From an uncultured delta proteobacterium (GTDB lineage Bacteria > Myxococcota_A > Polyangia > Haliangiales > Haliangiaceae): a DNA stretch of 64,000 nucleotides. The notes beneath the pieces are model-generated. The model did not search any database. It saw nothing but the letters and a program-made list of their open reading frames with translations, and was not told where the DNA came from. Of this stretch, positions 15,573-64,000 are shown in pieces (positions within the stretch are counted from its first letter, which is position 1; each line of letters starts with the position of its first letter). Where the stretch lies: positions 214,343 through 278,342 of the forward strand of contig CAVYYE010000009.1 in the NCBI GenBank assembly GCA_963772655.1, in the 5' to 3' direction. A program made the translations under genes and the position numbers.

Positions 15573-15588
15573 TGGCACGCCCCGTGCT
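15573..15588 (+). promoter_or_regulatory. Candidate sigma-54 promoter TGGCACGCCCCGTGCT upstream of the small ORF 15604..15915
   Basis: TGGCACG matches the -24 element perfectly and GC is at the correct -12 spacing. About 16 nt to the ATG, implying a near-leaderless transcript. Confidence 0.45.
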
Positions 15589-18042: not shown

Positions 18043-19512
<1,470 letters not shown>

Positions 19513-19642
19513 GAAAAGTAGGGTAACGCGTCCTGTCCAACTGTCTAGACAGCGTCTAGTCCAATGGACGAGACGCGGGACGTAACCTCAATCAAGTTAT
19601 TGAAACTGCTTGTCCTGCGCGCTGGACTCCCGGGTTCGAGGC

Positions 19643-24220: not shown

Positions 24221-24349
24221 GCCTCGCGGACGGGGCAAGCCACGTGCCCGGCCAGGAGCGCGAAATCAGGAGTGCACGTTGTCCGTGTCCGGCCGGCTTC
24301 CGGACACGCTGTCCGACCGGCGGACGACACCCGGTGGTATATCCCGATC

Positions 24350-26553: not shown

Positions 26554-27599
26554 TGCGGGGAATGCCGCCCCGACTGCTCGCACTCGCATTCCCTGCCCTG
26601 CTCGTTGCCTGCGGTGGTGCCCCGGCACCGGCACCGACCACGCCGCCCGCCACCGCGACGCCCGCGACCACGCCGGCGGCATCACCGGCCTACGACCCGA
26701 AGCTCGCCGCTCCGACCGGATTCGCGACCTGCGATCTCGTCACCGTGCACGGCGGCGTGGTGGTGGCCTACGCGATCGAGGGTGGTGCGTTGCGCGAGAC
26801 CGGGCGCACCAAGCTGGCCACCAACGACGACGACGAGCTGATGCTTGATCCCCACATCGGCCAAGGTGACTTCGCGAATCGCGATCACCTGTTCCTCACG
26901 ATCGGCGAGCGCGATGTCGCGCAGGTGACCGCCGGTGGAGTGGCCCACGTGACGGTTCCTCCGCCGAGCGCGTTCGATCGTCCCAAGCCCACCGACGGTG
27001 AAAACACGGATCCGGGCGCGCTCTCGGCGCCTCGCACCGGCCTCGTGATCAGCGAGGGGGCCGCGTGGTGGTCGCAGTGTCCATGGGGATTGGCCGCCGA
27101 CGGCTTCCAGTGCAGCTCGTACGTCCACGCCCGGCTGTGGCCGACGACAGCGCTCGAGCTCGACAAGCCGGCGTTGCCCGCGCATCACTTCGCGTGGCCG
27201 ACCGCGCCGGCCGGCTACCTGGCGAAACCGATCAAGGGGACCTATCGCTCGATCGCGTGCCAGCCACCGAAAGGCGCGACCGTGACCCTCGGAGCCAACC
27301 CCGACGACACCGACGAGGAGATCGATGGCACGCACTGGATCTCGACCGAGCCACCGCTGTTGCTCGTGATCTACGGTCACGCCGGGCTCGCCGACCTGAT
27401 TCCGGATCGCTGGACGCTTCACGCCGGCTGCACCGAAGCCCCGATCGCCAGCGGCACCACGGCGGAGCCGGGCCCGAACGGCCTGTGGCTCGGGCGCGTG
27501 GGTGAAGACGACGCGGCTCACCAGTTCGTGTATCGCGGCACCACCAAGCTCGGCGAGGTGCCGGCCGGCGTGACGGTGCTGTTCCGCCCGGCGAAGTGA
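26550..27599 (+). CDS. Hypothetical lipoprotein
   Basis: Lipobox LLVACGG followed by an Ala/Pro/Thr-rich linker. The ATG overlaps the upstream stop (ATGATG). Confidence 0.6.
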   Translation: MMRGMPPRLLALAFPALLVACGGAPAPAPTTPPATATPATTPAASPAYDPKLAAPTGFATCDLVTVHGGVVVAYAIEGGALRETGRTKLATNDDDELMLDPHIGQGDFANRDHLFLTIGERDVAQVTAGGVAHVTVPPPSAFDRPKPTDGENTDPGALSAPRTGLVISEGAAWWSQCPWGLAADGFQCSSYVHARLWPTTALELDKPALPAHHFAWPTAPAGYLAKPIKGTYRSIACQPPKGATVTLGANPDDTDEEIDGTHWISTEPPLLLVIYGHAGLADLIPDRWTLHAGCTEAPIASGTTAEPGPNGLWLGRVGEDDAAHQFVYRGTTKLGEVPAGVTVLFRPAK

Positions 27600-27707
27600 C
27601 GCGGTAGCGCGAGCTCGCGAGCGCGTTCCGTACAGGGAGCGCTTCGCCCGCCGATCATGCGACGGAGGCTGCAAGCGTACCGAGCGAGCGGTACGCCCGA
27701 CAGGCTC

Positions 27708-29282
<1,575 letters not shown>

Positions 29283-29360
29283 CTATCTTCTAGGATAACT
29301 TTATATATGGTTGGCTAGCACGGGATCCGCTAACTCCGCGAGCTCGCAGGAACCGCTGGG

Positions 29361-29376
29361 TGGTACGAGCGCTGCA
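29361..29376 (+). promoter_or_regulatory. Candidate sigma-54 (-24/-12) promoter for rtcB: TGGTACGAGCGCTGCA
   Basis: GG-N10-GC spacing is exact, and 12 of 14 defined consensus positions (TGGCACG-N4-TTGCW) match. It lies 17 nt upstream of the rtcB ATG, with the divergent RtcR activator gene adjacent. Confidence 0.5.
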
Positions 29377-29392
29377 ATTCGGTTCGTTCGCC

Positions 29393-30628
29393 ATGACGAA
29401 CTACCAGCTCCTCGACACCCCCAACGTTCCCATCAAGGCGTGGACGAACGGCGTGCCGTTCGAGGCCGAGGCCGCAGCGCAGCTGCGCCAGATCGCGTCG
29501 CTACCGTTCATCCACCAGTGGGTCGCGGTGATGCCCGACGTCCATGCCGGTATCGGTGCGACGGTCGGCTCGGTGATCGCGTGCCGTCGTGCGGTGATCC
29601 CGGCGGCGGTCGGCGTCGACATCGGCTGCGGCATGATGGCGGTCAAGACGTCGCTGCGTGCGGACCAGTTGCCGGACGACCTCCGGCCGCTGCGGCTCGC
29701 GATCGAGGCGGCGGTCCCGCACGGTCGTACCGATCGCGGCGCGTCCAACGATCGCGGTGCGCATCCGACCGATGCCGTGCCGGCGCGCGTCGCCGCGGCG
29801 TGGGCACAGCTCGAGCCGGGCTACGCCCGGATCGCGGCGGACCATCAGAGCGCGCAGAGCGCACGGCGCGTCCACCAGCTCGGTACGCTCGGCACGGGTA
29901 ACCACTTCATCGAGGTGTGTTTGGACGCGGAGCCTGCGACGAATGGAAATGTCTGGGTGATGCTGCACTCGGGCTCGCGCGGTATCGGCAACCGGATCGG
30001 CTCGTACTTCATCGAGCGCGCGAAGGCAGAGATGCGGCGCTGGTTCGTGAACCTGCCGGATGCGGCCCTCGCGTACCTGCCGCAGGGTAGCGAGCTGTTC
30101 GACGACTACCTGCACGCGGTCGCGTGGGCGCAGGACTACGCGCGCACCAACCGCGAGCTGATGATGCACGCGACGATCGAGGCCCTCCGCGGCGCCGGCT
30201 TGCCGGCGTTCACGGCGCACCTCGAGGCCGTGAACTGCCACCACAACTACGTGGCGTTCGAGCATCACTACGGCGAGAACGTGATCGTGACCCGCAAGGG
30301 CGCGGTCCGGGCGCGTGCGGGTGAGCTCGGCATCATCCCGGGCTCGATGGGCGCGAAGTCGTTCATCGTGCGCGGCAAGGGTAACGCCGAGTCGTTCTGC
30401 TCGTGTTCGCACGGCGCGGGCCGTACGATGTCGCGCACCAAGGCCAAGAAGGTGTTCACGCTCGACGACCACGCGAAGGCGACGGCGGGCGTGGAGTGCC
30501 GCAAGGATGCCGAGGTGCTCGACGAGACGCCCGGCGCGTACAAGGCGATCGACGACGTGATGGCGGCACAGGCCGACCTCGTCGACATCGTGTACACGCT
30601 CAAGCAGGTCGTTTGCGTGAAGGGATAG
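29393..30628 (+). CDS. rtcB: RNA-splicing ligase RtcB (3'-phosphate/2',3'-cyclic phosphate to 5'-OH RNA ligase)
   Basis: MTNYQLLDTPNVPIKAWTNGVPFEAEA, MPDVHAGIGATVGSV, GVDIGCGM, NHFIEVC, HSGSRGIGN, CHHNYV and HGAGR are all hallmark RtcB motifs. Confidence 0.95.
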   Translation: MTNYQLLDTPNVPIKAWTNGVPFEAEAAAQLRQIASLPFIHQWVAVMPDVHAGIGATVGSVIACRRAVIPAAVGVDIGCGMMAVKTSLRADQLPDDLRPLRLAIEAAVPHGRTDRGASNDRGAHPTDAVPARVAAAWAQLEPGYARIAADHQSAQSARRVHQLGTLGTGNHFIEVCLDAEPATNGNVWVMLHSGSRGIGNRIGSYFIERAKAEMRRWFVNLPDAALAYLPQGSELFDDYLHAVAWAQDYARTNRELMMHATIEALRGAGLPAFTAHLEAVNCHHNYVAFEHHYGENVIVTRKGAVRARAGELGIIPGSMGAKSFIVRGKGNAESFCSCSHGAGRTMSRTKAKKVFTLDDHAKATAGVECRKDAEVLDETPGAYKAIDDVMAAQADLVDIVYTLKQVVCVKG

Positions 30629-30730
30629 CCGTGCTAACCATCCCCGCCCTCGCGTGATCGCGGGTCGTCGTTCATCGACGACGGCTCTCGCAGATCACCG
30701 ACGGCGGCGCTGTTTTTCAGGAGTCATCCG

Positions 30731-33271
30731 ATGTCCAAGGCATCGATCGATCGTCGCGCGACCAAGCGGGCGAAGGAGGAAACTGTCATGAGCGAGACGC
30801 AGAAGCGGGACCTCGTACTGCCGCCCGGCAGCTACGCGTACATGCAGGACGTCACCAAGGGCGTCATCAAGACCTACACGGGTCCGACGGTGATCAACCC
30901 GACCGCGCAGGAGCGGCCGGTGATCTACGACGCCGAGGTCGGTGCGTTCTCGAGCGCCGCGTCGCTCGAGGATGCGATGCGGCTGTCGCCGATCGCGCCC
31001 GAGGGTTTCTACGTGATCCTGCGCAACCCGGCGAAGGGCAACAAGCATCCCGAGGAGGGCAGCGCGCAGCCGAGCGCCGACCAGGAGATTGGTCGCACGA
31101 TCATCGTGCCCGGTCCGGCGACGTTCGCGTTGTGGCCGGGCCAGGCGGCCGAGGTCGTCGAGGGCCACCACCTGCGTTCGAACCAGTACCTCCTGGTGCG
31201 CGTGTACAACGAGGAGGAGGCACAGCGGAACTGGAGCAAGGCGGTCGTCAAGCCGGCCGCCGAGTCGGCCGTCACCGAGCCCGCGGAGGTCATCGCGACG
31301 CCGCCCGATCTCACGGTCGGCAAGCAGCTGATCATCCGCGGCACGGAGGTGTCGTTCTACATCCCGCCGACCGGCGTCGAGGTCGTGCGCGAGGGCGAGA
31401 GCTACGCGCGCGAGGCGCTCACGCTCGAGCGGCTCGAGTACGCGATCCTCGTCGACGAGAACGGCAAGAAGCGCTACGAGGTCGGTCCGCAGGTGGTGTT
31501 CCCGCTGCCGACGGAGCGCTTCGTCGAGGCGTACGACGGCGGCCGGACCAGCAAGAAGTTCCGGGCGGTCGAGCTCAACGAGATCCAGGGCCTCCACATC
31601 AAGGTGATCGCGGACTACACCGAGCACGGCGTGGTCCACCACACCGGCGACGAGCTGTTCATCACCGGCAAGGACACGGCGATCTACTTCCCGCGCGAGG
31701 AGCACTCGGCGATCAAGTACGACGGCAAGGCCAAGCACTTCGCGACCGCGATCCCCGCGGGCGAGGCGCGCTACGTGATGGAGCGCCTGAGCGGCGAGAT
31801 CCGCACCGTGCGCGGTCCGGCGATGCTGTTGCCCGATCCTCGTCGTGAGGTGATCGTGCGGCGTGCGCTGTCCGCGCGCGAATGTGCCCTGTGGTACCCG
31901 GGCAACAACGACGCGCTGACCTACAACGCGAGCCTGCGGAGCCTGCTCCACCACGTGCCGACCACGCGGCGGGGCGCGGTGTCCGAGGGCGAGGTCGAGC
32001 GTGCCGGTCGGCGTGCGGCGAAGCACGGCGTCAACCTCCACATGGAGGCGAGCCGGGTGTCGGGCGATCAGGCACTGATCGCCGACGAGTTCTCGCGTGC
32101 GAGCACGTACACCCAGCCGCGGACGATCACGCTCGACACCAAGTACCAGGGTGCGCCGCAGATCGCGGTGTGGACCGGCTACGCCGTGCTGGTGACCTCG
32201 AAGACCGGTCGCCGGCGCGTCGAGGTCGGCCCGACGACGATCCTGCTCGACTACGACGAGACCCTCGAGGTGTTGTCGCTGTCGACCGGCATGCCGAAGT
32301 CGGCGGCCGAGCTGCTCGAGACGCCGTACCTGCGGATCGACAACAACCACGTCTCGGACGTGGTGACGGTCGAGACGTCGGATCACGTCCAGGCGCAGCT
32401 CCAGCTGACCTACCGCACCCGGTTCGAGGGCGATCCGCTCGCGTGGTTCACCGTCGAGAACTACGTCAAGCTGCTGTGCGACCACACGCGCTCGCTGCTC
32501 AAGGGCGAGATCCGGAAGCTGTCGATCGAGGCGTTCTACGCCGGTGCGACCGACCGCATTCGCGAGCTCGTGCTCGGAACGGGCGAGACCAAGGGCCTCG
32601 TGTTCGACAACGGCCTGCGGGTGATCGATGTCGACGTGGTCGGCGTGACGCTGACCGACGACACGATCCGCGCGCTGGTCGAGGAGGCGCAGCACGACGC
32701 CGTGCGCGATAGCGTGGTGCTGTCCGGTCTGAGCCGCGAGCTCGCGGTCACCAAGCAGCGCGAGCAGCTGAGCCGCGAGACCGCCGAGGTCCAGGCCGCG
32801 ACCAAGCTCAAGACCGACGAGCTCGCCCGCGAGGTCGCCGCCAGCGAGCTGGCCACCGCGCTCGCGCGGATCGCGAGCTCGCTGCGCGAGACCGGCGAGC
32901 GCCGCAAGCTGGTCGAGAGCGAGGTCGAGATCGACGCGCTCAAGACCGGTGCGCGGCTCGAGCGGGTCAAGCGCGAGCGCGATCAGGAGCTGGCGTTCGC
33001 CGCGCTCGAGCAGGACAAGCACGTCGAGCTGCTGCGCGTCGAGGCCGAGACCGCCGTCCAGCGGTTTTCCGCCGTGTCGGGCAACTTCAGCGAGGCCCTC
33101 CTCGCGCTCGGCCGGCACGAGACGCTGGTCAAGGTGGCGGAGGCGTGGAACACGCAGCGCATCGTCGAGGGCGAGTCGCTCGGCGACACCCTGTCGCGGC
33201 TGTTCCACAACACGCCGCTCAAGGTGCTGGTCGACCAGCTGGTCGTGCGCGGTAACGGCGCGGCCGACTGA
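30731..33271 (+). CDS. Major vault protein (MVP) homolog with vault-repeat domains, shoulder domain and cap-helix coiled coil. An alternative start at 30788 has an AGGAGG RBS.
   Basis: Recalled alignment to human MVP: [18 protein letters not shown] vs [41 protein letters not shown] vs [74 protein letters not shown] vs [51 protein letters not shown]; and a long Ala/Glu/Arg-rich coiled coil near the C-terminus. Confidence 0.88.
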   Translation: [846 protein letters not shown]

Positions 33272-40559: not shown

Positions 40560-40814
40560 GTTGCCCGCGCATTCAGCAATGAGCGCGCCACGTGGGGGTG
40601 TCCGGGATCGGGTGGGAAGCCTTTGAAACTGCACGAATTGTGAAGCGATCGATGGCATGCCGACCAGCCAGTGACGCACCTGGACAAGCCACCAGAACGG
40701 CTTGTCACGTTGCCAGTAGTGTCCGGGGACGCGCTCGAACGTGGTCGAACGCCGCGAGATCAGGAGACGTGCCTTCCGTCCGGTCGGGGCATGTCCCGTG
40801 CACGAGGCGCGCGC

Positions 40815-47866: not shown

Positions 47867-49925
47867 TCAGGGCGCGGTCAGCGTGTAGCTGTTCTTCGCG
47901 CCGTTGTAGCCGAACACGCGGACGCTGCCGCCCGCGGGCACCGTGACCTCCTCGGAGTCGTTGGTGCTGGTGCTGCTGCCGACCTTGCTACCCGACGCGT
48001 CGTACGCCTCCAGGTCGAGGTCGCCGTTGCTGTGCGTGAACTCGATGCGCACCGTGCCGCCGGCCGCGCTCGAGAACCAGTCCTCGTCGGCCGCGCAGAT
48101 CCGCAGGTCGGTCACCGTGCCGCTCGCGGCGACGGCCGCGGCCTGGGTGTCGTTGGGCTCCTTCGCGTCGGTGCACTCCATGCCGGGCAACTCGAGCGAG
48201 CAGTACTCGGTCGACTCGGAGGGCTTCGTGGTGTCGGCGGCGACATCACGCTGCGCGCACACCTCGTCCTCCTGCCACGGCCGCCAGTCGGCACCGCGGC
48301 CGATCGACTCGGCGTACGACTGCCACAGCTGGTAGCCGTCGTCGCGCGACTCGAACACCACCGGCGCGATGCAGGTGTGGTTGGCCTCGGCGGCCGCCGA
48401 GATCCTTCTGGGCCTTGTCCATGATGATCGCGTACATCGCCGACGTGCTGGAGTTCCAGCAGCAGGTCTTGCTCTTGGTGTAGTCGAGCTCGGCGAACAC
48501 GTAGTCCTCGAGGTTGCGGTACTGCGCGTCGACATCACCCTTGCTCATGCCGAGCTCGCGCCCGACGTCGTACAGCTGGTGGAACGCCTGCTCGCGCCGC
48601 TCGCGCGCCGCGCACGACGCCGGGTACTGCGCCAGGTGGTGGCGCGCGTCGTCGATCTGCACGAGCAGCTCGTCGCGCTTCTGCTCCGGCGGCACCTGCC
48701 CCAGGAGCTGCTCGAATCGCGCGGGACGCGCCGCGATCCGGGCGTAGTCCGTCGAGTTGATCCAGCTCGCCTCGTCGGAGGCCATCCAGGTGTTGGTCCA
48801 GTAGCCGCCCACGTTCTTGGTCACGCGCCAGCGCTTGATGCCGCCGCCGAGCTTGGCGTACGGCGTGCCGTCCGAGGCCTCGCCCTCACCACCGGTGTAC
48901 GCGCTGGTGAAGTAGCTCTTCGACGACTGACCGCTCTGCTGCTTGCCCTGGCGGCGAGGCATCGAGCCCGAGATCGTGGTGACGTCCTTGCTGCCACCAT
49001 CGAGCTCGCGCACTTCCTTGACCACGATCGTGTGGCCGATGCCGTTCTTCTGCCAGCGCTCCAGCAACGTGTCTCCCGGGCGCACCGCGTCGGGGACGAT
49101 GTTGTACGTGTTCGCCGTGTCGGCGACGTTCATCGAGCCGAGGTAGGCCAGCGTCATCAGCGCGAAGTAGCCGACGCGCTTGTTGAGGAAGATCTCGTCG
49201 ACGTAGGCGCCGAACTGCGCGCCCGGGGCGATCATGTCCTGGTTGTCCTCGCCGCCCGCGAGGTGCTTGGCGCGCAGCTTGGCGTCGTGCGGCCACGACG
49301 TCTGCCAGTCGCTGTTCGACTCGTCGCGGTAGCGAACCCCGAACTCGGGCGAGTTGGCGTAGCGCCCCGACTGCGTGCGCACGCCGTTGTGGCTGAAGTA
49401 GACGCGATTGCCGTGCTCGTCCTGGGTCTCCCAGAACAGCGGCAGCTCGTACCACGACGCGAACGCGATCCGCAGGAACATCGCCATCTCGGCGCACTCG
49501 AGCCGGGGCGACGGCAGCGTCTTGCCCCACGGCGTGCTCAGCTCGAACGTCGTGGAGTAGCCATCGAGTGCCGGGATCCAGTTGAACGACTCGATCCACT
49601 TCGAGAACTTCTGGTCCCAGTTGAGGCCGCTGTCGGCGGGCCACGCCATGCCGGCCTTGCGCGCGGCCGGCGTGTCCGTGTCTTCCCACTTGTTCCGCGC
49701 AGTCCACACCTGGGTGCGCGTCGTGTCGGTGTTCACCAGCAAGCCACGACGGAGCTCGGAGTCCTCCTTGCCGGGAGGCGGCGTCGGTCCGAGTGGACCG
49801 TCCATGCCCCATTCGTCATCGAGTGCCGACTGGGAATCGGTCGCGCAGCCGATCGTTCCGATCGTGCAACACAGGAGACAAGCGAGGATGGCGAGCTTGC
49901 GCATGCGCGGATGCAAAGCATCCAT
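47867..49925 (-). CDS. Large lipoprotein with a C-terminal pre-peptidase (PPC)-like domain, interrupted by an apparent frameshift near 48395
   Basis: Lipobox LLCCTIGTIGC. Real-looking frame over 48400..49925, then continuation in the ORF 47867..48538 frame (…ISAAAEANHTCIAPVVFESRDDGYQLWQ…TVRIEFTHSNGDLDLEAYDASG…YTLTAP). Confidence 0.55.
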
Positions 49926-50225
49926 CGTGCCGGCCGGAGTGCCTGCAACCTCGGTGGGTTACGGGTGTGTTCGGTCTCCCGACCAGCCGACTAGCCAGGC
50001 CACCAGACCTAGCAGTCGAAGGGATCGCCGAGAGGAAGTGCACGGGGCCGCGCAAACCGCGAACCGCGCTGAACAACTGCGGTGCGCGGGAACAATGACG
50101 ACGAGGCGGGTGTGGCCCGGGGCCCAACCGGACCACACCCTCGATCGAGTCACCACATCTCGATCGATCTCGCCGAAGACGGTTGTCGGGCGCCGTCCGA
50201 AGACGGTGGCGGAGCGCCCGCGAGA

Positions 50226-50450
50226 CTAGCCCTGGACGATCGTCGCGCCGTTGGCCGACACCACGCTGGTGCCGCGCTTGCGGTTCATCGTCAGCATCAT
50301 CAGCGGCAGGAGCAGGTTGCTCTGATCGCTGTTCTTGCTGGTCGACAGGCTCGACAGCGAGTCCTTGATCGAGGTCAGCGACTGGGTGAGCTCGGTGTTC
50401 TTGCTGGCGCCGCCGGAGACGGTCGCGAGGGTGTCAACGTCGAGGTGCTT
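50226..50450 (-). CDS. Small protein (75 aa) with a double-glycine leader-like N-terminus (MKHLDVDTLATVSGG) and a Ser/Thr/Asn/Leu-rich core. Candidate orphan bacteriocin/RiPP-type precursor.
   Basis: Very strong GC3 codon bias supports translation. The leader matches the L(-12), L(-7), V(-4), GG(-2,-1) double-glycine consensus. Confidence 0.45.
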   Translation of the reverse strand, partial: KHLDVDTLATVSGGASKNTELTQSLTSIKDSLSSLSTSKNSDQSNLLLPLMMLTMNRKRGTSVVSANGATIVQG

Positions 50451-50575
50451 CATGCCTCGGAGGATGTGCAGCGCGCGTGCCGCGTTTGCCGCCAATGCGT
50501 TCGCGAACTTCGGCGAACACCCCAGTAAACCGCACCGAGCAGATCGAGTCCGCGAGAACGCGCTATACCCGACGC

Positions 50576-63865: not shown

Positions 63866-64000
63866 TGGTGTTCTCCCGGAAGTGTTCTCACGTCCAGAAA
63901 TGCGACCCCCGTGCCGGCCAGCTCGGATACCTCCCTACTCGGATCGACCGTCCTCGCGCGCGCAGCTCCATCGTCGTCATCCGCGTTCGCGCAAGGATTT

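Follow-up and report, generated by a model that had tools for sequence, protein, structure and literature searches.

A predicted RtcR-activated sigma-54 promoter set against the rtcB start codon of an rtcB-MVP operon

Introduction

The site at 29361-29376 of the window (the whole 64-kb stretch of DNA analysed here) is very probably an RtcR-activated sigma-54 promoter of an rtcB-MVP RNA-repair operon, for which a near-leaderless mRNA is predicted. Control of rtcBA by RtcR and sigma-54 is established (PMC9650030, PMC7790460, PMC9879122), and sequence comparison places the site as an orthologue within this known promoter class; that much is expected. The sole unusual feature of this RtcR promoter is its closeness to the rtcB start codon. 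Sigma-54 promoters usually lie farther from the start codon. The layout is also compact, with a half-site array, a weak IHF-like site and the promoter all contained within the 110 bp that separate rtcR from rtcB.

The genes of the locus and the rtcB start codon

The genes on which the argument depends are the following.

27708-29282, minus strand: rtcR, 524 aa (Pfam RtcR 1.2e-69, Sigma54_activat 1.2e-47)
29393-30628, plus strand: rtcB, RNA 3'-phosphate/5'-OH ligase, 411 aa (Pfam RtcB 1.2e-131)
30731-33271, plus strand: major-vault-protein (MVP)-like gene, 846 aa (Pfam MVP_shoulder 8.7e-20, Vault_3 5.6e-10)
18043-19512, minus strand: second enhancer-binding protein, with REC, sigma-54 AAA+ and HTH_8 domains

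RtcR begins with a CARF-type RtcR domain, continues with an AAA+ domain and ends in a helix-turn-helix-like tail. Its GAFTGA motif is intact at residue 262, and the Walker A motif could be located too. Homologs that share 65-82% identity with it are numerous and are named RtcR by their sources; several belong to Kofleriaceae, and others are recorded as 'Deltaproteobacteria bacterium'. From these names the window is assigned to a Kofleriaceae-like myxobacterium. A second enhancer-binding protein at 18043-19512 implies that the organism uses sigma-54; no rpoN gene lies within the 64-kb window.

The target operon encodes RtcB and stands adjacent and divergent to rtcR, as is characteristic of the RtcR regulon. 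In E. coli rtcA is co-transcribed with rtcB; in the window no rtcA is found next to rtcB, the following gene being MVP-like. Since rtcA is not universal in RtcR operons, its lack does not exclude membership. On the other side of the locus, a 330-aa ORF after rtcR (26682-27674) has no Pfam match. A search of the window with Rfam at the gathering threshold returned no match, and hence no Y RNA or other known RNA tied to the operon.

The distance between promoter and gene depends on where rtcB begins. The RtcB N-terminus, MTNYQLLDT, aligns residue for residue with its clade homologs and with the MNYELLTT of E. coli, and in six of 13 clade rtcB loci there is no alternative in-frame start before the upstream stop. 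Because of these two observations ATG 29393 is, by sequence comparison, the true start of rtcB. The longest ORF begins instead at GTG 29360, which is the upstream edge of the promoter, and an ORF opened there runs through the promoter. An RtcB extended to this GTG is ruled out by the N-terminal homology and by the six relatives that lack an upstream in-frame start. Gene callers that prefer the longest ORF would over-extend rtcB by 11 codons, which bears on the annotation of starts in high-GC myxobacterial MAGs.

The sigma-54 motif and its expectation by chance

The promoter itself is described as follows.

29361-29376, plus strand: predicted sigma-54 (-24/-12) promoter of rtcB, TGGTACGAGCGCTGCA, with GG at 29362-63 and GC at 29374-75

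An initial annotation of this DNA had described the site as a near-consensus sigma-54 promoter with exact GG-N10-GC spacing, lying between divergent rtcR and rtcB genes. Both the spacing and the placement are borne out: GG and GC are exactly 10 nt apart, and the motif falls inside the 110-bp gap between 27708-29282 (-) and 29393-30628 (+). The same annotation scored 12 of 14 consensus positions as matching. Two mismatches to TGGCACG-N4-TTGCW are indeed present (C to T at 29364 and T to C at 29372), while the score itself needs revision to 10 of 12 defined core positions, or 11 of 13 when the purine after TGGCACG is counted. The -24 half (TGGTAC) is only moderately good, and it is degenerate in relatives (CGGCCC, TGGACC), so the intrinsic strength of the promoter may be low. 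A scan of 29150-29500 found no sigma-70-like promoter and no terminator.

By count alone, a two-mismatch match is unremarkable in the window. There are 11 matches with at most two mismatches, against 7.7 expected, and 23 with at most three, against 30 expected. When GG and GC are both required to be intact, eight matches with at most two mismatches occur where 3.8 are expected, a number reached in seven of 200 simulations. A narrower pattern, found once against 0.02 expected, carries little weight, as it was composed after the site had been seen. Since a two-mismatch match is not rare by count, the evidence must come from context and comparison.

Those counts are what speaks for the idea that TGGTACGAGCGCTGCA is a chance GG-N10-GC in G+C-rich DNA and that rtcB is transcribed from an unrecognised promoter of a non-sigma-54 type, given that matches at this level are not enriched. 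This explanation is nevertheless extremely improbable. In all 14 loci the aligned GG and TGCA stay unchanged amid neighbouring positions that vary, the adjoining regulator RtcR is a dedicated sigma-54 activator, and an experimentally known promoter of E. coli occupies the same position (PMC9650030).

Conservation across RtcR loci

Relatives of the locus were collected in several steps. A first scan of genomes, made with RtcR at full length, retrieved 80 loci, of which 76 encoded unrelated activators, the seed peptide IFLDEIGE being common to all enhancer-binding proteins, and the four true RtcR loci (L001-L004) have no adjacent rtcB. When metagenomes were scanned with a seed alignment restricted to the CARF domain, 80 RtcR loci were obtained, to which exact-protein look-ups added seven more close loci. 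All loci with rtcB next to and divergent from rtcR have a GG-N10-GC motif in the intervening region.

Fourteen loci could be aligned from the upstream box (the conserved core of the half-site array) to the start codon and are referred to here as the clade: the window, L081-L086, L162, L163 and L165-L169. The mean column identity of this alignment is 53%. Identity in 14 of 14 loci is confined essentially to the -24 GG and -12 TGCA of the promoter, the ATAA and TA of the box, and some of the start codon, with variable flanks; as the loci are related, this invariance does not amount to 14 independent observations. The divergent rtcR/rtcB layout of the window recurs in L082-L086, L162, L163, L168 and L169. 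Among the variants, a gene with leucine-rich repeats (LRR) is inserted in L081, L165 and L166, and rtcB is lacking in L167.

The short distance between promoter and gene is kept as well. In 12 of the 13 loci in which rtcB comes first, the gap between the -12 C and the ATG is 14 nt (three loci), 16 nt (seven) or 17 nt (two). L084 is the exception, with an insertion of 13-15 nt that carries AGGAGA. L167 has no rtcB, and its promoter leads straight to the MVP-like gene across a gap of 37 nt with an AGGAAGGA ribosome site. Judged from this alignment, the position and conservation of the rtcB motif are far beyond chance. The reading of the site as a sigma-54 promoter activated by RtcR, which the initial annotation had proposed, is thereby favoured, given an adjoining RtcR with GAFTGA, the invariant GG and TGCA, and a short gap to the ATG that has been retained.

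Beyond the clade, E. coli and most of some 70 more distantly related RtcR loci likewise have a sigma-54 motif upstream of rtcR. The distant loci have better-matching motifs (TGGCACG..TGCT and similar), gaps of 36-39 nt and clear GGAGGA or GGAAGGAGAA ribosome sites; those with such gaps are Acidobacteria-like in composition. Their wider gaps and ribosome sites indicate that the short leader is a trait of the clade and not of RtcR operons generally.

Several other features were seen in these loci. Between the RtcR box and rtcR, L081, L165 (1716-2993), L166 (1757-3004) and probably L001 (79-1191) have a gene for a protein of about 420 aa with faint matches to leucine-rich repeats; this gene is apparently co-transcribed with rtcR. 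In four Acidobacteria-like loci (L101, L121, L126 and L160) the sigma-54 motif is separated from rtcB by a leader of 147-162 nt. One segment of this leader, GGTTCGTGAGCGAA..GGGAGTCGCGAAC, is conserved, and a hairpin within it shows compensatory changes (GAGGCGCGGG/CCCGCGCCTC versus GGAGCGCAGGG/CCCTGCGCCTC); Rfam at the gathering threshold found only a tRNA in these four loci and no family for the leader. In two Verrucomicrobia loci (L003 3760-3850 and L004 1-60), the strand opposite rtcR carries a near-perfect sigma-54 motif, TGGCACGC.GCTAGCA, which is followed not directly by a gene, but by a conserved non-coding stretch, CTTCCGTYCTCCGACTCCATGCAGCGAC. No Rfam match at the gathering threshold was obtained for L001-L004.

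The predicted transcription start and leader

The start of transcription was predicted by a rule calibrated on the E. coli rtcBA promoter. The native promoter has been primed with ApC at -1/+1 (PMC9650030), and this ApC corresponds to the 11th and 12th nucleotides after the C of the -12 GC. Carried over to the window, the rule gives the following position.

29386-29390, plus strand: predicted transcription start; counting 12 nucleotides on from the -12 C leads to 29387, with G29386 and G29390 as the nearest purines

From the C of the -12 GC (29375) to the A of the rtcB ATG (29393) there is a gap of 17 nt, the figure that the initial annotation had also given for the distance from the -12 element. 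By the E. coli rule the rtcB leader is predicted to be 3-7 nt long and to lack a Shine-Dalgarno sequence. The annotation's proposal of a 5' UTR of about 5 nt is therefore sound as to a very short leader, while its single value gives way to this predicted range. No Shine-Dalgarno sequence occurs in the 20 nt before the ATG, and the 17-nt gap, aattcggttcgttcgcc, bears no resemblance to one.

Leaderless mRNAs have been defined as those with a 5' UTR of no more than 5 nt (PMC12754779), a threshold that the predicted rtcB UTR straddles. A leader of this length is neither a strict 5'-AUG nor able to carry a Shine-Dalgarno sequence, which makes the efficiency of translation uncertain.

The sigma-54 promoter might be real and yet not be the sole or main source of rtcB mRNA, if a second promoter farther upstream, in or past the box or inside rtcR, supplied a longer leader or if the start departed from the E. 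coli rule. An additional sigma-70-type promoter has been reported for the RNA-repair operon of Salmonella (PMC9879122), and, with gaps of 13-17 nt across the window, not every start can fall on the A of the ATG. A source of this kind is quite unlikely here. The region 29150-29500 holds no sigma-70-like site, and a longer leader would be no help, as the 20 nt before the ATG would still offer no Shine-Dalgarno sequence. A sigma-54 start that was irrelevant to rtcB would need no conservation, yet the spacing of 14-17 nt is tight across 12 loci. Initiation from the sigma-54 promoter close to the ATG is accordingly the preferred account of rtcB expression, with the exact start position predicted.

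A half-site array upstream of the promoter

Upstream of the promoter, G+C content falls to 0.52 at 29250-29349, compared with about 0.70 around it. Two elements are placed in or beside this patch.

29284-29318, no strand: candidate RtcR enhancer (upstream activating sequence, UAS), four half-sites with a 10-bp period (TATC 29284, GATAA 29294, TATA 29304, GCTA 29314)
29331-29343, plus strand: position of an IHF-like element, aligned with YAANNNNTTGATW of relatives; the window copy, TAACTCCGCGAGC, is weak

The initial annotation had noticed an AT-rich segment at 29300-29330 and suggested that it could be either an IHF site or the RtcR UAS. The low G+C content is real, but the core of it is at 29283-29318, about 15 nt to the left, where it aligns with the conserved half-site array; of the two suggestions, the alignment favours the UAS and not the IHF site. 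Across the clade the array has the consensus TATC-N6-GATAA-N5-TATC-N6-GATA. The pattern GATAA-N5-TAT[AC] occurs once in the 64-kb window, against 0.00 expected. Most of the distant RtcR loci, which number roughly 70, have a GATAA-N5-TATC-like box at a distance of 11-15 nt from the start of rtcR; in E. coli, GATATTTCATTATC lies 22 nt from the rtcR ATG.

The array is best read, from this comparison, as an RtcR enhancer, and we infer that RtcR binds it. In all 14 clade loci, 66-69 nt separate GATAA from the -24 GG. About 86 bp lie between the centre of the array and the predicted rtcB transcription start downstream of it; a sigma-54 UAS is expected about 70-150 bp upstream of the start. Where the LRR gene is inserted (L081, L165 and L166), the box stays with the rtcB promoter and heads the LRR-rtcR unit. 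If the assignment is right, TATC/GATA half-sites with a 10-bp period constitute a candidate RtcR recognition sequence that extends from E. coli to Myxococcota, Acidobacteria-like and Verrucomicrobia loci.

The box lies only 1-11 nt from the rtcR ATG and could thus be primarily a promoter or operator of rtcR. In its strongest form, the array would be nothing other than the sigma-70 promoter and autoregulatory operator of rtcR (or of LRR-rtcR), or the site of some other protein, and the rtcB enhancer would lie elsewhere. The distance from the box to rtcR is fixed at 11-15 nt across phyla, whereas that from the box to the sigma-54 motif varies by class (68 to 128-138 nt), and on the rtcR strand the first half-site yields -10 hexamers resembling TATTAT/TANNNT. 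Such an exclusive role is judged unlikely. The array is dyad-symmetric with a 10-bp period, as expected of an enhancer bound by a dimer, it is the sole conserved element upstream of the promoter in the clade alignment, and its distance from GG is held constant within the clade though the intervening sequence varies. The roles of rtcR operator and rtcB enhancer are, moreover, not exclusive. The candidate enhancer probably overlaps, or doubles as, a promoter or operator of rtcR, and its overlap with the rtcR start region makes autoregulation of rtcR likely.

A helical phasing of box and promoter across phyla was considered and rejected: the distances fall into classes of 68, 75, 78, 99, 113-116 and 128-138 nt, not all of which are multiples of a helical turn.

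An IHF site was likewise rejected as the identity of the AT-rich patch, which aligns with the dyad half-sites, while in the alignment the relatives' IHF-like YAANNNNTTGATW falls 30-40 nt farther downstream. At that position the window sequence keeps only TAA and GA of the element. Among the relatives, L082, L084 and L168 have the full TTGAT, and most others have three or four of the five positions. The window matches the IHF consensus exactly just once, with CAATAACTTGATT at 19590-19602 (-), immediately upstream of the start of the second enhancer-binding protein.

The MVP-like gene and the rtcB-MVP spacer

The MVP-like gene is presumed to be the second gene of the operon with rtcB. It has its own Shine-Dalgarno sequence, AGGAG, 7 nt before the ATG, and an MVP-like gene also follows rtcB in L082, L084, L163, L165, L166, L168 and L169. 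The linkage of rtcB and MVP in bacteria is attributed to Burroughs and Aravind 2016 (as cited in PMC13404743); the window likewise has rtcB followed by an MVP homolog, as in those bacterial RtcB-MVP neighbourhoods. Between the two genes lies a structured spacer.

30607-30712, plus strand: rtcB-MVP spacer, with a short hairpin, a long G+C-rich hairpin and a T run (CTGTTTTT)

The short hairpin spans the rtcB stop codon (GGATAG...CTAACC, also given as GGATAG..CTATCC). This layout is shared by five of eight clade loci (the window, L163, L165, L166 and L168) and is absent from L082, L084 and L169. The stem sequences of the long hairpin differ between loci and stay complementary. The spacer, for which Rfam has no match, resembles a terminator or attenuator in its sequence, and could also be a small RNA.

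Comparison with known systems

The closest point of reference is the rtcBA promoter of E. coli, which is activated by RtcR, depends on sigma-54 and has a UAS, with an IHF site between UAS and promoter (PMC9650030). E. coli and the window share a divergent rtcR, a GG-N10-GC -24/-12 motif, rtcB as first gene of the operon and a CARF-AAA+ activator with GAFTGA. They also share a GATA-N6-TATC unit beside the rtcR start, which in E. coli is part of GATATTTCATTATC. In the rtcR-rtcB spacer of E. coli MG1655, TGGCACGACGGTTGCA is followed by 39 nt before the ATG. The dimensions differ throughout: the intergenic region is 110 bp in the window and 188 bp in E. coli, the box lies 68 rather than 113 nt from GG, and the -12 C is separated from the ATG by 17 rather than 39 nt. 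The leader, predicted at 3-7 nt without a Shine-Dalgarno sequence in the window, is 28 nt in E. coli. The IHF-like element of the window is weak by comparison, and the operon partner is a major-vault-protein homolog instead of rtcA.

In Salmonella, an rsr-yrlBA-rtcBA operon is under the control of RtcR and sigma-54, with a divergent rtcR that has its own promoter (PMC9879122, PMC7790460). The window resembles it in combining a predicted RtcR-activated sigma-54 promoter and an RNA-repair operon with a relative of a eukaryotic RNP protein (Ro60 in Salmonella, MVP in the window). Unlike Salmonella, the window has no rsr and, as far as Rfam detects, no Y RNA, and rtcB comes first with the promoter abutting it.

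Systems with leaderless transcripts offer another parallel. Leaderless mRNAs of Deinococcus-Thermus have a -10 box adjoining the ORF (PMC12340547), and in myxobacteria a leaderless pexR has been proposed, with sigmaA promoters (PMC12754779). Like them, the window has a predicted promoter element whose spacing to the start codon is short and fixed, and no Shine-Dalgarno sequence precedes the ATG. The Deinococcus-Thermus and myxobacterial cases involve a sigma-70/sigmaA -10 box, whereas the window has a sigma-54 -12 box.

A proposed mechanism

These elements suggest the following sequence of events. Sigma-54 holoenzyme, on which the promoter is predicted to depend, would form a closed complex at the -24 GG and -12 TGCA. 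A signal of RNA damage would release the CARF domain of RtcR from auto-inhibition, allowing RtcR to assemble on the TATC/GATA half-sites at 29284-29318. RtcR would then contact the polymerase by DNA looping, and ATP hydrolysis would drive formation of the open complex. Transcription would begin at about 29386-29390 and produce an rtcB mRNA with 3-7 untranslated nucleotides and no Shine-Dalgarno sequence, and such an mRNA would have to be translated in a leaderless or near-leaderless mode.

Similar geometry elsewhere in the window

The closeness of a sigma-54-like motif to a start codon is not confined to rtcB. Six of the eight window motifs that have GG and GC intact and at most two mismatches are followed, 13-17 nt downstream, by an ATG that opens a long ORF; for bare GG-N10-GC the background frequency of such an ATG is 2.6% (33 of 1265). 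With one motif of three mismatches, the short-gap cases are these.

15573-15588, plus strand: motif, gap of 16 nt, 103-aa ORF
24234-24249, minus strand: motif, gap of 14 nt, 128-aa ORF
29361-29376, plus strand: motif, gap of 17 nt, rtcB
40575-40590, minus strand: motif, gap of 16 nt, 636-aa ORF
40787-40802, plus strand: motif with 3 mismatches, gap of 13 nt, PLD-like ORF
49917-49932, minus strand: motif, gap of 13 nt, 552-aa ORF
50467-50482, minus strand: motif, gap of 14 nt, 75-aa ORF

The ORFs that follow these motifs have high third-position GC. Four of them open with signal or lipoprotein peptides (for example MRILPLVLLAALPQITAC), by which their start codons are fixed independently. A motif at 63901 (-) has an ordinary gap of 36 nt and a GGGAGAA site. 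The clade loci contain three further short-gap cases at genes other than rtcB, two of which match independently called gene starts (L163 8780 and L169 7218). In about 1.1 Mb of unrelated loci the distribution of gaps peaks at 23-36 nt, and gaps of 11-16 nt are only scattered (Sorangium, Anaeromyxobacter, Desulfovibrio and others).

The sequences suggest that this genome commonly makes near-leaderless sigma-54 transcripts, rtcB being one instance of an apparent habit. A broader generalisation can be offered tentatively: this Kofleriaceae-like lineage may by default place its sigma-54 promoters right at start codons, leaving 13-17 nt between the -12 GC and the ATG, and so produce leaderless or near-leaderless mRNAs. 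Seven cases in the window and three in relatives display this abutting architecture. Should it hold, near-leaderless sigma-54 transcripts would bear on how enhancer-dependent transcription is coupled to the initiation of translation. In the literature searched (one library, in which absence is not proof of novelty), no description of sigma-54 promoters placed for leaderless transcripts was found.

The anti-Shine-Dalgarno sequence is carried at the 3' end of 16S rRNA. It is pure speculation that translation of RtcB independently of Shine-Dalgarno pairing would survive damage to that end or to the translation apparatus.

One of the short-gap ORFs deserves separate mention. The 75-aa ORF at 50226-50453 (-), which has no Pfam match, begins MKHLDVDTLATVSGG, and this opening resembles the double-glycine leader of a secreted peptide.
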